This document shows positions 5,635-26,600 of a stretch of 64,000 bases of DNA, piece after piece. The DNA is from Lingula anatina (taxonomy: Eukaryota > Animalia > Brachiopoda), in assembly GCA_051362555.1 (NCBI GenBank), contig CM120640.1, positions 7,812,001-7,876,000 on the forward strand, given 5' to 3'. The position numbers and the translations under genes were made by a program. Each line of letters begins with the position of its first letter. The stretch's first letter is position 1. Under the pieces are notes generated by a model. It saw only the letters and a program-made list of their open reading frames with translations. It was not told the DNA's origin and made no database searches.

Positions 5635-8600
5635 CTGCAAATAAAAGGAAAAATCAGCATGAATGAGTTTCTTGCATGAATATCCTTTGAGAAGGATTTA
5701 TCAGTGTTTAAATTTTTTTCTGGATAACAAATATATGCTTCATGAGGATAATCTAGAATATGAACTTTTTAAGTGTCATATTTTGAAAACTGGCTGTGCA
5801 AAAAATTGATCTCATGGCAAATTCTACAGAAATAGGACAAAATAAGTGTTGCATCCTCCCTTCTGTATCTTTCATACCTAAACTGAAGTTTGTTTTCATC
5901 CTGTCATTTATTTTGTTCTAAAGTGTTCCAAAGTGAAGCATTTCACCATAAATCTCAATGTACACCTCACTTACCGCTAAGAAGTCTACCTCCAAGATTA
6001 CAAAGTGGAGAGACATAGATAAAAGAATGGCTCCCATCAGCCACATGTTACACCATGGGGGCATCAACATCAGTGACTGGTTCTCACTTAGGCTGTAGAA
6101 AGGAGCAAAATGAAATAAAGTTATTAACAGAAAACACTAAGTTTTCATCCAGACCATTTACACAGGCAAGCAATGCATGGGAGAATAGAGGGTAAATTGT
6201 TTATGAGAAATGATAATTTTGTAGAGTGGAAAATGTGCATAAACTTTCTTACCTAGAATAGTATGTAAATGCAATATGTATTACAAAAGAAATTATTAAT
6301 TTTTATAGGCCTTACAATTGGTACTTTTTAAGGATTTTCATTCAGAAAAAATTGTGACAAAAGAAATTGTCATTTAGCATTGACAAACTGGATCAATACA
6401 GTACAGAGTTTAAAACCTGATGAAAATGATTACTAAAATAAATAAATGAAATAACATTATGAAAATCATTTTGGTGCATGCTAAATTTTCAAAGATGGAA
6501 CTTAACATAACTGTGAAGCAAAATGAACAAATCTTACAACTGGGGTCATTTTGTGCAAATCAATCAAGTTATGTTAAAAAAATCACTGAACACAAGAATG
6601 AACATGAGACTTAGAAGAAACTTTTTAACAAGTGTACGGCATGAAGTGCAAGGAGTATGGAAATATTCATGCTCTTAATTTCTCAACAGAGATGAAAATA
6701 GTAGGGTGAAGTTTTTAATCTTATCAAACACTGGTGAAAAAATTCATACAAATATGTGCCAATCTAAAACATGTTCAATTGTGGAATAAAACGTGCAACA
6801 AAATGACCACAATTAAATGCTAAAATTATTTGACTGCAAAACAAAGGGAAAAAACAGTGGTATTAAGGGCAATTTTCTCAAAAATCACAAATATAAATAG
6901 TGTCTCATGTGATATTTCACAACACAAATACAAGTTTTGACACTTTGAGAAAATTGCAACAAAATCCTGCAATACATCATTTTAAAACCTAAATGCAACA
7001 GCAAGCAAAACAATGCTACCAATTTCAAAGTAACTTTTGGAAAAAGCTTCAAACTTGAAAGTGAACAAAGCATAAGCAAGTACAGGGTCATGTTGGGCAA
7101 GAATGGAGAAGTCAGCAATAGATTCTGTGGCACCATCTCCACAATAAAGAAACAAAGAACATCTCAAAGAGGACGCTTCAAGATACAAGTTCCTTTTCCT
7201 GCTCCAAAAGCCTCGTCCCTTCAACCAATATCCCCTTATAGAATCACAGCCTTTCACAATCTTCCTTAAAATAATTTAATATTTTATCTTTTTACTGAAC
7301 CCGAGTTTTCCTGCCCCCTACTGCTGACTTAACCATTGTTCACCATGCAGGAAGTTAGTCTGCACATGGATCATGGAATTAATCAATTCAAAGAGAGATT
7401 CTCCATGCCTACGAGAAGACCTGCTGAAGATCTGCGCAGTTGTAGAAAAGTTACAACATTACTGTTGTTTCTGTCTAGTTATCTGCTAATACTCAAACAA
7501 ACATCCAGTGCCTCAACTTCCTGCTATGTGTGAGTACTGACCAATACTGGACTACTGTTACACACATTAATTTACCATTATTACCCATCACCCTTATCCC
7601 AAGTTGCCAATTCTATTATTTATTTACTTATTCATATTTTATTCACCAATTCAACTCTTCAAACTTGAAGCAAGTCTCAGGCTCACTTTGAGACCAAATA
7701 CTTCCATCTGCTTAATAAGCAGACTTATACACTCTACTGGGTCCAGTGTTGGTCAGCACCCCCCGCCGGTCTTGACCCCTTACCTGTTTATGGCATTGCA
7801 CATCTCAATGACCACCAGAACAGAAAGTGCCATGGTCATGGGCTTAGGGTCACTGAAGACACCACAATCTACGCCCTTGAACAGGGCGTCTTGAGCCGGG
7901 CACTGGGCTATGTGGGTCTGTGTGCAAAAAAATTATATAGACAACACTAGGTTTTTGCCAAAACAAAAGGGACATCTTGACAGAAAAGACCTATCATTTG
8001 CAACAGTGACACCCAATGTTTGATTTCAACAGTATAGAGAAGAATTTGGTGTTTTGGACAAGTACAGCGTCAGTCTAAAGGAGATGACATTTCACATCCC
8101 TTATTTTTTAATCAAAACTGGCAAGATGTTCTCTTCTATTACAATGATATGTTTAACAAAAAGTAAGTATTCAGTTCATGAATACTTTCAAGTTTTCCAA
8201 GTTCTTCATACCTTATAATCAAAATTGAATTGTTACTGTAGCAAAACTGCATGAAAAACTGCACAGTAGGGACTTTCCCAACCAAAATACTACTCTCAAA
8301 TCTGTGAGCAATCAAGACTTCAAATTTTTTAAAAGAGAGCTCTCTTGCAAGAAAAATAATTTGGAGGGGGAATTTACTTCAGAGAAAATGCAGGACAAAA
8401 CCCTACCAAAAACCACGGTGAAATATTTTGGGTGGGATAAAATCCACGGCACAGCTTACACACAATATAACCAAACCCCAGTGTTGTGTTTGATCCACCT
8501 ACCTGTAATCCATTCAAAATTTTATAATATACCACACAACACAACACTGGGGCTTAGCACTAACTTACATCAACAACTTCCTAACAATGTTCTATGTAAT

Positions 8601-23600: not shown

Positions 23601-26600
23601 AATATTTGGCCTTAACAAAATTTCATTTACAAGTATTTTTTCTATTGACATGGTTCCCATATGAGGTAGCTTTCAATGTCCTAATTTAAACCACATACTA
23701 TACATAAAAATCAAATTAAAAATAATATTACACAAATATACAATTAAAATGCTACAATTTGTATTCAATGTTTAATGGTTAGTGGGATATGGACAAAGAA
23801 TTTGTTTGAAAACTGTGACTGGTTGATTGTAGTGAGTACAATGTGGATGTTAACTGTTTTAACTGTTTAACAAGAGAAAAGAACATATTTCTCATCTGCT
23901 TCTTCATTTATCTGCCATGCAATTAAATCCCTATAAAACAAAACCATACGGAAATAAATTCCTATAAAACAAAATTAAACCACTCTGTGAAAAGAAATAT
24001 ATCTCAATTTTGGTGAGGGGATAAAAGGGCTTGGGTAAACCACACTTCACACAAAATTCCAAACCAAACCAAACCAAGCCAAAGCATAACATAACAAGGT
24101 TTTGAAGCTTTAGCAGGGTTTCTATCCAAACAAATTATATATTATAGAAGACAGCTATCAAAACAAATTACCGGTTCTAGATAGGCATTCTTCAAAATAT
24201 CATCTCATCTTTTTTTTTCTTACATGGAACAAGTGATTCTAATTTCTGTATATCTGTGGTGAAAATGGATAACTACTTCCCCAAGCTCCCCGATGTAGTA
24301 GTTGTTTTGTGATAAACTTTTTCATGATTAATTACCAGCACTTATAAATTTTCTGGCGCAAAAATTCCCTCCCATTCAAAAGTTTGTGTAGTTTCCACAT
24401 CTTTCCATTCATGAACAGGTAAAACTTTTATCATTTAAACATGCAAATCAACATCCAAAAATACTCAAAATATCTGATTGTGAAAAACCTGTCATCTCTA
24501 TGATTATCTACCAGAATAAAAGCAGATATGCAAATTTGAAATATAAGACTATAGAGGAAATATGGCAGTCTAAAGTGTGTACATCAGCTATAGGAGCTGT
24601 CCTCATACTTCCTATGGCATCTTATAGACTGGGTTCCCATACCTAGATCGATCCAACAGAATCGTTCCATCTCTGAGGGGTTTCTCACTAAATTGCTTTC
24701 AGCTTAAGTGGCTTAGATGTCTGGCACGCCTACTAAAGCTGCTAAACAACAATTAATTACCCCTTAGCAGCTTCAGTAGGCTTGACAGACATCTTAGCCA
24801 CCTAAGTTGATCGCAACTTAGTGAGAATCCTCTCAGAGATATATCAATCCACAGTTAGTACGAGAGGGTCTGGGAATGGTCCCATATACTGTTTTCTAGT
24901 GCAGCAACTACTCTGATTCTATATGCTTTCAAGCTGCAGTCCGTTCCATTATCTAAAGAAAGTATTCAACATGGCATTCAAGACTCATTGTAAAATATTC
25001 CCAATTCACAGCGTTCTTTGCTATGGGTATACCTAACGCCAAGCATGTCGTAATAACAGTTGGGAGCCCCTCAGGGATGGCAGCCACAGCCAGGGACACC
25101 GCAATCTTAAAGTAGTAGATTCCGCCCTAGTGGAACAACAGGTAAAAAAAAACAAGGCACAATCGATTTAATTTCAAATCACAAAATGAACTGGAACAAC
25201 AGCAAAAACATCAATCAAGTCATCAGTCACTGTGGTGATATGGAAGGTGGAATCATTTCTTCAATGACAATGATGGTACAACATTAAACTCTGCTGCAGG
25301 CAAACATTACAGAGTCTTGAATGTGCTATTTTCAGTGAGCATGAAGTGTGCATGACATTTTAAATTGTGGGACACCAATTATAAAAAGAAAGACTTCACA
25401 TTTAAACAAAAGACAAGAGGATTTCATTCAAGAAAGAAACATGCACAAGGTTTCAAATTTTGCTTTGCACTGTATTGTATTGTATTGTTCTGCCATCATC
25501 ATCATTATCTACAGAATTGTATGATTCCTTCCAGATCCCCCTCCACCTGTGCAGTATAACTGATATACCACCAGCCAACTGTATGTATGGTAGGTATACA
25601 CATACAGTAGAGCAGTTATTATTACCTAAAGCCAGACATGTAGTGATAACAGCTGGAAGGCCCTCAGGTATAGCTGCCACAGCCAAAGCTACTGCAATCT
25701 TGAAATAGTAGATAGCTCCCTGCAAAGTAAAGGAGTGGGACATTGTGGAACATGGAGAAAAGTGCACAGAAAAGACAAACAAGAGAGAGAATAGTCAGCA
25801 TTCCTTGATTTTTCTTTTATTTATTTTTCTTTTCCTTTTCTTCTTTTTTTTTTTTTTTTTGGGGGGGGGGGGCAATTAATTTCAAATAGTTATAAAAATT
25901 AGGATCATTTCATATAATGAGCATCAATTAAATACAATTTTGCTGTTCTTAATTAGACAAAAAGATTTTTTTTTTTTTTGGGGGGGGGGGGGGTGAAAAC
26001 TGCAATACCAAACAAGGAATGCTGCTTACCATCTCCCAGAAAATGCAGTACTAGAAGTACTATATGTAGTCTAGAAAATCATGCTCAAAGACCTATTCTA
26101 ATGTTCAGATTTCATTACTGTACGAACTCATATATTTCATGTACTCATAATTAATTACTTGAACAATGCCATGCATGTGTGGTTTTTTAAATTGGATTTC
26201 ATTTAAAATGTAGCTGAAATGTTCCTATTTCCATTATATATTTGTACGTGTTTGTTATAATGTGAAAAATAAGTGTGATCGGGGTGTCAAATAAGTGAAG
26301 GTAATCTATTTCAAGGCATTCAGATCAAATCAGATTACAGGGTAACCTTTGATTTAAGAAAAGATATCAAATCTAAAGCAAGATTGATCTCAAATGATTA
26401 GCAATCCTAAGTGAATAGATCACAATTCTTTGGAAACACGCATGCGGTCACCAAAATAGATGGAAACTTTAGACTACATGACATGCCTTATCTGTATCCA
26501 GAGTATCATAGATTGGAAGGAAAAGCCAGTAAATATTGAATGTGCCAATAAATCAGCATCAAACTTAGCAGTGGAAATCCCACAGTGCAACCCAGCTGCA

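Follow-up and report, generated by a model that had tools for sequence, protein, structure and literature searches.

The SERCA gene of the brachiopod Lingula anatina, contained in a 64-kb window of contig CM120640.1 (positions 7,812,001 to 7,876,000; coordinates below count from the first letter of this window), carries three tandem pairs of homologous exons that encode alternative versions of internal segments of the pump. Junction-spanning RNA reads reveal that two of these pairs, encoding transmembrane helix M7 (exons 22A and 22B) and the luminal loop L7-8 with helix M8 (exons 23A and 23B), are spliced as alternatives in sample-specific ratios. The third pair, encoding helix M4 (exons 11A and 11B), is probably a rarer third switch, judging from its sequence. 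Together with a likely retuning of the pump from its luminal side, these statements make up the explanation favoured here, to which a probability of about 0.72 is assigned.

Three duplicated exons and their use in RNA

The translation of the 25-exon minus-strand gene model, in which all boundaries are of the AG/GT type, matched RefSeq XP_013421498 exactly, and one constitutive exon was 100% identical to the SERCA of Lingula anatina. In phmmer searches the protein scored ~1,660-1,677 bits against SERCA1 and SERCA2 chains across residues 1-994, and its Pfam domains fit SERCA (A, N, P and membrane domains). The DKTGT phosphorylation motif was present in the aligned sequence together with E309, E771, N796, T799, D800 and E908, which we take to be ligands of the two Ca2+ sites (residue numbering follows rabbit SERCA1a, which runs one ahead of SERCA2 after approximately residue 508). 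By homology, the encoded protein is identified as a SERCA (P2A Ca2+-ATPase). Six RefSeq isoforms of the gene exist, with 22A in isoform X2, 23B in isoform X3 and four different tails.

The original prediction, made from the window alone, had described three tandem duplications with intact splice sites, open frames and equal phases, and this description was confirmed. Both copies measure 94 nt in pair 11 (phase 0 to 1), 86 nt in pair 22 (phase 1 to 0) and 134 nt in pair 23 (phase 0 to 2), and all six are open and flanked by AG and GT. When each of the 25 exons was searched against the 64-kb window with sensitive tblastn, no further duplicate appeared, in agreement with the statement that no cytosolic exon is duplicated. 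The predicted frameshift upon inclusion of both copies or neither was likewise reproduced: relative to 1021 in the single-copy forms, the first stop falls at residue 328 with both copies of exon 11 and at 302 with neither, at 899 and 858-864 for pair 22, and at 918 and 873 for pair 23. One odd combination, with both 22 copies and no exon 23, continues to 1005. The early stops of the double and empty products have exon junctions downstream, an arrangement that invites nonsense-mediated decay.

Within the pairs, nucleotide identity is 73/94 (pair 11), 62/86 (pair 22) and 81/134 (pair 23), and the differences are mostly synonymous. Pair 11 differs by 18 synonymous and 3 non-synonymous changes and no indel (pS 0.67, pN 0.045, the proportions of synonymous and non-synonymous differences); the corresponding values are pS 0.72 and pN 0.12 for pair 22, with five residue changes, and pS 0.75 and pN 0.31 for pair 23, with sixteen. 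As pS lies far above pN in every pair, the selection check proposed with the original prediction indicates that the three duplications are old and that both copies are constrained as protein. The claim that the swaps exchange the Ca2+-binding core was not upheld: V304, A305, I307, E309 and E908, presumably Ca2+ ligands, are identical between the copies of each pair, as are the loop cysteines C876 and C888. Most residue change between copies sits in the luminal loop, and the M4 copies differ only by the three substitutions listed in Table 1.

Four of nine raw-read runs listed under the species label (X1, X4, X7 and X9) were aligned to 7500-16300, a region that comprises pairs 22 and 23 and reaches neither the M4 exons nor the joins to exon 24; the joints reported are the strongest 15 of 115. 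In the order of these runs, exon 21 was joined to 22A by 72, 0, 1 and 4 reads and to 22B by 33, 49, 55 and 48. Further downstream, 45, 0, 3 and 0 reads joined 22A to 23A, 16, 17, 23 and 31 joined 22B to 23A, and 1, 16, 18 and 15 joined 22B to 23B. The 22A share of upstream junctions was thus 72/105 in run X1 and 0/49, 1/56 and 4/52 (≤8%) in X4, X7 and X9, and the corresponding 23B shares were 1/62 and 16/33, 18/44 and 15/46 (33-48%). Run X1 favours 22A and nearly excludes 23B, whereas the other three use mainly 22B with both exon-23 copies. Fisher tests of X1 against X4 gave p 3e-18 for 22A and 3e-8 for 23B, values that are indicative, since both mates of a read pair were counted and these are not independent.

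Both copies of exon 22 were joined to both flanking exons in the reads; for pair 23, upstream junctions of both copies come from the reads and the downstream joins from RefSeq isoforms X1 and X3. Three core combinations (22A-23A, 22B-23A and 22B-23B) were observed among the strongest joints, where no 22A-22B, 23A-23B, 22A-23B or skip joint appeared, so the eight cores originally proposed (2x2x2) shrink to three in what is observed. In run X1, the one 22A-rich run, 22A-23B accounts for ≤2 reads against 45 for 22A-23A. As the same run seldom uses 23B even with 22B (1/17), the pattern reflects co-regulation by sample rather than coupling on the same molecule. Read depth at 7894, 23 nt into 23B, was 3, 18, 21 and 21, of which the 22B-23B junction explains 1, 16, 18 and 15; double inclusion of 23A and 23B is consequently a minority event at most. 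The expectation that junction reads would reveal alternative splicing therefore held for pairs 22 and 23, the two pairs in the aligned region, with regulation between samples; the B copy of pair 11 is missing from the RefSeq isoforms.

Table 1. Features of the SERCA gene in the window (strand as given) and of one exon-23 array on a metagenome contig (L042)
Feature	Position	Strand	Basis or remark
SERCA gene, 25 exons including read-through tail	5434..51166	-	identity to XP_013421498
Exon 11A, M4, residues 291-322, PEGL with E309	25626..25719	-	in 6/6 RefSeq isoforms
Exon 11B, second M4 copy: A292G, A301S, A313T	25033..25126	-	splice sites intact
Exon 22A, M7 and start of L7-8: G847, I850, G853, Q864, W867	13842..13927	-	RefSeq isoform X2
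Exon 22B, M7, conventional type	13037..13122	-	main form in runs X4, X7, X9
Exon 23A, L7-8 loop (C876, C888) and M8 (E908); A signature M874, E879, T906	8603..8736	-	
Exon 23B, same segment as 23A; B signature A874, Q879, V906	7784..7917	-	RefSeq isoform X3
Predicted 21-bp hairpin, 45 nt past the 23A donor	8470..8558	-	fold prediction
Exon 25 and read-through tail, hydrophobic extra helix	5434..5634	-	SERCA2b-like by inference
Alternative terminal exon matching the tail of RefSeq isoform X4	2245..2312 (approximate)	-	
Alternative terminal exon matching the tail of RefSeq isoform X5	195..252 (approximate)	-	
Exon-23 array, seven intact copies	L042:6458-14876		annelid-like contig

Several minor elements lie in the introns around these exons. 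A 43-nt copy (84%) of the 22B acceptor region at 13315-13357, which can pair with 13594-13615, is a possible decoy acceptor. A third M7 copy considered near 13315 was rejected, as only these ~43 nt of acceptor region are duplicated and M7-like coding sequence is absent. The 22B-23A intron holds a 146-nt tandem repeat (9534-10980, 9.9 copies, 96% matches) and a duplicated element of ~830 nt (about 11200-12918); reads of this repeat family are far deeper than those of the SERCA exons and are stranded in runs X1 and X4. A palindrome of ~170 nt at 24669-24840, 190 nt downstream of 11B, is probably a small mobile element, and one of its arms is 78% complementary to part of exon 11B.

The exon-23 pair in other phyla

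Proteins of molluscs, nemerteans, bryozoans and flatworms also contain the exon-23 A/B pair, each copy with its fixed signature. Of the copies expected in related genomes, those of pair 23 were found over five phyla, while no second copy of exon 11 or 22 turned up in the other loci compared. Isoform sets differing at residues 873-913 were collected from the molluscs Haliotis, Patella, Littorina, Bradybaena, Pomacea, Gigantopelta, Crassostrea virginica and Ostrea, and further from Mytilus, Argopecten, Mizuhopecten, Mya, Lineus, Tubulanus and Watersipora. Biomphalaria gene models contain both exon-23 types, and in models of Macrostomum, Batillaria and Mytilus coruscus A runs into B, in the same order. 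The swap was absent from echinoderm, horseshoe-crab and tardigrade isoform sets and from the listed isoforms of Pinctada, Physella and Magallana gigas, absences that annotation gaps could explain. Across 14 genus-level A/B pairs, three of them assembled from sister species or genera, M874 and E879 were found in 14/14 A copies and Q879 in 14/14 B copies; position 906 differed in 14/14 pairs, mostly as T versus V, and C876, C888 and E908 were invariant.

A scan of metagenomes with 23B gave 247 confirmed stretches, of which the best 80 were examined as loci (L numbers). Exon 23 is single in 49 of these, 17 of which are spliced transcripts; 26 loci have two copies, 2 have three, 2 have five and L042 has seven. 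Tandem copies, 2 to 7 in number, are thus present in 31/80 loci; because several contigs belong to one species or to closely related ones, the 31 do not amount to 31 independent lineages. The copies in the 30 listed multi-copy loci and the seventh L042 copy have AG/GT flanks and a length of 134 nt (one 137). Arrays of 3 to 7 intact copies were found on the annelid-like contigs L042, L005, L019, L048, L061 and L025, the label of L042 reflecting its best score against Capitella; its last copy is of the B type. Copies 2, 3 and 6 of L042, which are extra-array or A-type copies, showed pS 0.37-0.47 at pN 0.015-0.038 when compared with copies in L025, L069 and L061, and copies 1 and 7 showed pN 0.12-0.145. 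The blastn matches shown fall on exons.

In an exon-23 tree of 77 rows and 44 columns, from which unnamed rows (bar three outgroups) and over-long joined models were omitted, the B copies of Lingula, molluscs, nemerteans, Macrostomum and two clitellates clustered at 91/89, with Lingula 23B inside a 98/92 subgroup. The first 14 intron bases after GT agreed between Lingula and the bivalve-like locus L059 at 11/14 positions for A and 11/14 for B, and at 5 and 4 when compared crosswise. This donor-flank identity and the shared A-B order lend added support to one origin. Local alignment of the Lingula introns with those of 7 other loci gave nothing convincing past the donor flanks (best p ~0.02, 21 tests). 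Taken together, the sequences suggest that the exon-23 pair arose once near the base of Spiralia, which by the divergence dates of these phyla would make it more than 500 million years old.

The M7 and M4 pairs appear to have arisen later, in the Lingula line. Two M7 exons were found in 0/55 loci (36 of them genomic, spanning exons 21-23), and a second M4 copy was absent from L042, the one genomic locus reaching M4. The full 22A pattern occurred in none of the 120 proteins listed among 239 matches to the 22A region, and a few matching proteins carry parts of it. Two differences of another kind were noted among the collected isoforms. The Lineus proteins P0018 and P0140, of the same length, differ by 6 residues at 187-204, a segment that matches Lingula exon 7 in the A domain, which probably marks another alternative exon pair, in a cytosolic domain. 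In oyster SERCA isoforms, for instance P0045 versus P0044, 6 residues may be inserted at residue 954, where exons 24 and 25 meet.

Possible basis of exclusivity

The simplest account of exclusivity appears to be regulated splice-site choice combined with decay of frameshifted products: the choice would enforce the use of one copy, and double or empty products would be removed by nonsense-mediated decay. Simple steric exclusion is unlikely in Lingula, as the introns between the copies (499 nt in pair 11, 719 nt in pair 22 and 685 nt in pair 23) are too long; the introns between copies in L019 and L005 measure 64 and 85 nt. No early consensus branch point was found after 23A in Lingula. Among the folds of 15 Lingula donor flanks, the hairpin predicted downstream of 23A ranks first (z -4.2; next -2.3), whereas no significant hairpin follows 23B (z -0.85). 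The 3' arm of the 23A hairpin has an alternative partner at 7941-7958, upstream of the 23B acceptor; this pairing, at -19.6 kcal/mol, falls in the ~0.1% tail of random pairs. The hairpin after 23A is a candidate element that perhaps aids exclusivity.

In the repeats shown, a selector element common to the copies was detected neither in L042 (7 copies) nor in L005 and L019 (5 copies each), and Rfam gave 0 matches within the window. A 9-mer occurring 7 times against 0.63 expected carries little weight, having been picked post hoc and with 2 matches inside a repeat. By these sequence comparisons no docking-site/selector arrangement of the Dscam type was detected, and Lingula offers one candidate competing pairing. 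In clitellate-like loci, TACTAAY was found 83-125 nt after the A donor in 10/11 cases. Conserved blocks occupy the first 130 nt of the A-B intron (L018, L024, L026-L029, L032, L034, L044 and L047), and those of the 11 clitellate-like introns showed no consensus fold (alifold -1.1 kcal/mol). The motif and the blocks possibly represent a distal branch point or protein-binding sites.

Functional reading, alternatives and known systems

The surface exchanged by the swaps probably corresponds to a regulated face of the human pump. The SERCA2 loop cysteines C875 and C887 have been tied to redox control of pumping by ERdj5, SEPN1, ERp57 and TMX1 (PMC7603117), and the SERCA2b luminal tail is placed near the luminal ends of TM7 and TM10, approaching the short L7/8 helix F866-S870 (PMC7423393). 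The Lingula counterpart of this helix is the end of exon 22, in which residue 867 differs (W/Y), and the conserved A/B signature residues flank C876. The M8 change is a single residue, two positions from E908. The swaps consequently alter the regulated luminal face and one M8 residue, not the ligands. Swapping would place A- or B-type residues on the face that bears the redox-regulated cysteine pair in human SERCA2 and that is met by the SERCA2b luminal tail, and would thereby retune regulation or kinetics of the pump from the luminal side while leaving the calcium sites unchanged. The A and B forms would then give different cell types pumps with distinct turnover, apparent Ca2+ affinity or partner binding. 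A wider version, in which L7-8/M8 is an ancient spiralian cassette that sets kinetics and redox or partner control per cell type, with selectable arrays and three live switches in Lingula, is put forward tentatively and is somewhat less likely to be right than wrong; it would span brachiopods, molluscs, annelids, nemerteans, bryozoans and flatworms, with at least seven versions in some annelid-like genomes.

Several observations weigh against the favoured explanation, in whole or in part. The reads derive from animals whose sequence departs from the window at many fixed positions, and up to 2/18, 3/21 and 6/21 reads at 7894 (X4, X7 and X9) could represent low-level double inclusion. The hairpin after 23A recurs in only 1/5 other loci folded (L059, z -3.2). 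The exon-23 tree rests on 44 columns, its B group is unstarred, and constraining Lingula 23A and 23B to group together costs 18 log-likelihood units but is not rejected (p-AU 0.069); moreover, the Watersipora pair shows a reversed 906 signature and a long branch. As exon 23 is single in 13/19 genomic loci that span exons 22 to 24, the pair is not present in every SERCA gene. Finally, 11B is found in 0/6 RefSeq isoforms of Lingula SERCA, and searches using 11B returned exon-bounded look-alikes only and no spliced product containing it.

These last points favour a reading in which only two switches are alive and past selection has preserved 11B as an M4 copy that was silenced recently or never chosen. 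No M4 swap was seen in the SERCA isoform sets of other species, S301 is absent from all 317 collected SERCA-search proteins longer than 300 residues, and the single M4 copy of L042 points the same way. The state of the exon speaks against such silencing: 18 synonymous changes stand against 3 non-synonymous ones, AG and GT are intact and no indel has accumulated. Judged by eye, the 11B donor is at least as strong as the donors of 11A and 23A. All three residue changes are also found in natural sequences elsewhere, with T313 as the normal residue in echinoderm SERCAs, and the exon-bounded open reading frames P0347 (S301, T313) and P0346 (G292, S301) share the boundaries of 11B and two of the changes each. 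On balance a silenced 11B is considered unlikely, although it is the strongest of the competing readings, and use of 11B in splicing is judged likely from its sequence. Should the contigs of P0346 and P0347 also hold an A-type exon, the M4 pair would not be confined to Lingula.

That the alternative exons give near-equivalent pumps, the pair persisting through expression divided between cell types or mRNA-level tuning by frameshifted products, is rated improbable. Many loop positions do vary freely between species, some SERCA genes lack the pair, and the double and empty products carry early stops; however, copy-specific residues at 874, 879 and 906 are kept across five phyla, and equivalent copies are not expected to hold separate signatures, nor does the conservation of divergent array copies between contigs at low pN fit equivalence. 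Less probable still is the proposal that three freely combined switches yield eight cores with different calcium sites and replace the vertebrate paralogues. All eight single-copy combinations keep the frame (five shown), each pair is under purifying selection, and ligands are no more than a turn or two away from A301S and T906V, but the ligands themselves are unchanged and the joints recovered fall short of free combination, with three cores and almost no 22A-23B in run X1. Many of the 13 single-exon-23 loci, furthermore, belong to one separate sequence type, which is probably a second annelid paralogue, so paralogues and splicing coexist; two of the 13 resemble arthropod sequences. An assembly artefact or uncollapsed alleles, for which the repeat-rich 22B-23A intron might speak, is refuted by the separate junction reads of 22A, 22B, 23A and 23B and by the same tandem layout in 31 other loci; in addition, the copies are 60-78% identical and their introns unrelated.

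The explanation favoured here, alternative M7 and L7-8/M8 exons with a probable M4 switch, departs from what is described for invertebrate SERCA, whose splicing is presented as C-terminal in the available parts of PMC3527596 and PMC6987452. The latter reports a single SERCA transcript in oyster, and for scallop muscles the portion of PMC5963113 at hand mentions only SERCA levels. In C-terminal splicing (Artemia, C. elegans, Pinctada; vertebrate SERCA2a/2b) one gene likewise gives several pumps, and Lingula also has such tails, but only the tail is changed there, whereas Lingula exchanges internal membrane and luminal segments between homologous exons. No description of internal mutually exclusive exons in invertebrate SERCA was found in a literature search that left most subscription journals and supplements outside its reach; genome-wide splicing tables could list SERCA exon swaps. 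The originally supposed novelty stands in so far as no published description was found, but not at the level of gene models: RefSeq (Lingula XP_013421498-506; mollusc, nemertean and bryozoan SERCAs) already holds 22A and, in many genera, both exon-23 types, with 22A and 23B in Lingula isoforms X2 and X3. These models differ from the present account in being automatic, in lacking 11B and in giving nothing on exclusivity, conservation, usage ratios or arrays.

Two known systems come closest. Tandem duplicated exon substitution, as set out in the available text of PMC9741552, belongs to the same class, with homologous tandem exons that are ancient, tissue-biased and enriched in ion transport, including PMCA and voltage-gated channels. 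That work covers human, fly and nematode genes, and its main text contains 0 matches to SERCA or ATP2A; the spiralian cluster and the arrays are absent from it. The exon clusters of protostome muscle myosin heavy chain, as presented in the accessible part of PMC3912159, similarly show splicing in place of vertebrate paralogues, with lineage-specific gains and losses, but concern a motor experimentally linked to muscle types, whereas Lingula SERCA is a pump without such a link. What appears to be new is a form of mutually exclusive exon duplication that leaves the calcium sites unchanged, seen as regulated switches in Lingula and as an ancient spiralian SERCA exon pair that has grown to as many as seven tandem copies.

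An internal switch that is shared by several phyla and sits on the cysteine-pair loop that meets the SERCA2b tail would constitute a second, unrecognised axis of pump diversity in Spiralia. It bears on fast versus catch muscle, neurons and shell-forming epithelia, where SERCA assays were isoform-blind, and it supplies natural variant pairs (M/A874, E/Q879, T/V906, the M7 set and A301S) for probing how the luminal face and M8 tune the pump. Most surprising of all are the arrays of five to seven copies.

Among the minor observations, the single-exon-23 SERCA type was seen between exons 22 and 24 in L002, L004, L006, L009, L013, L014, L017, L043, L045 and L051. In the window itself, a neighbouring gene on the plus strand (57843-63718) has exons with F5/8 type C and SUEL lectin domains.

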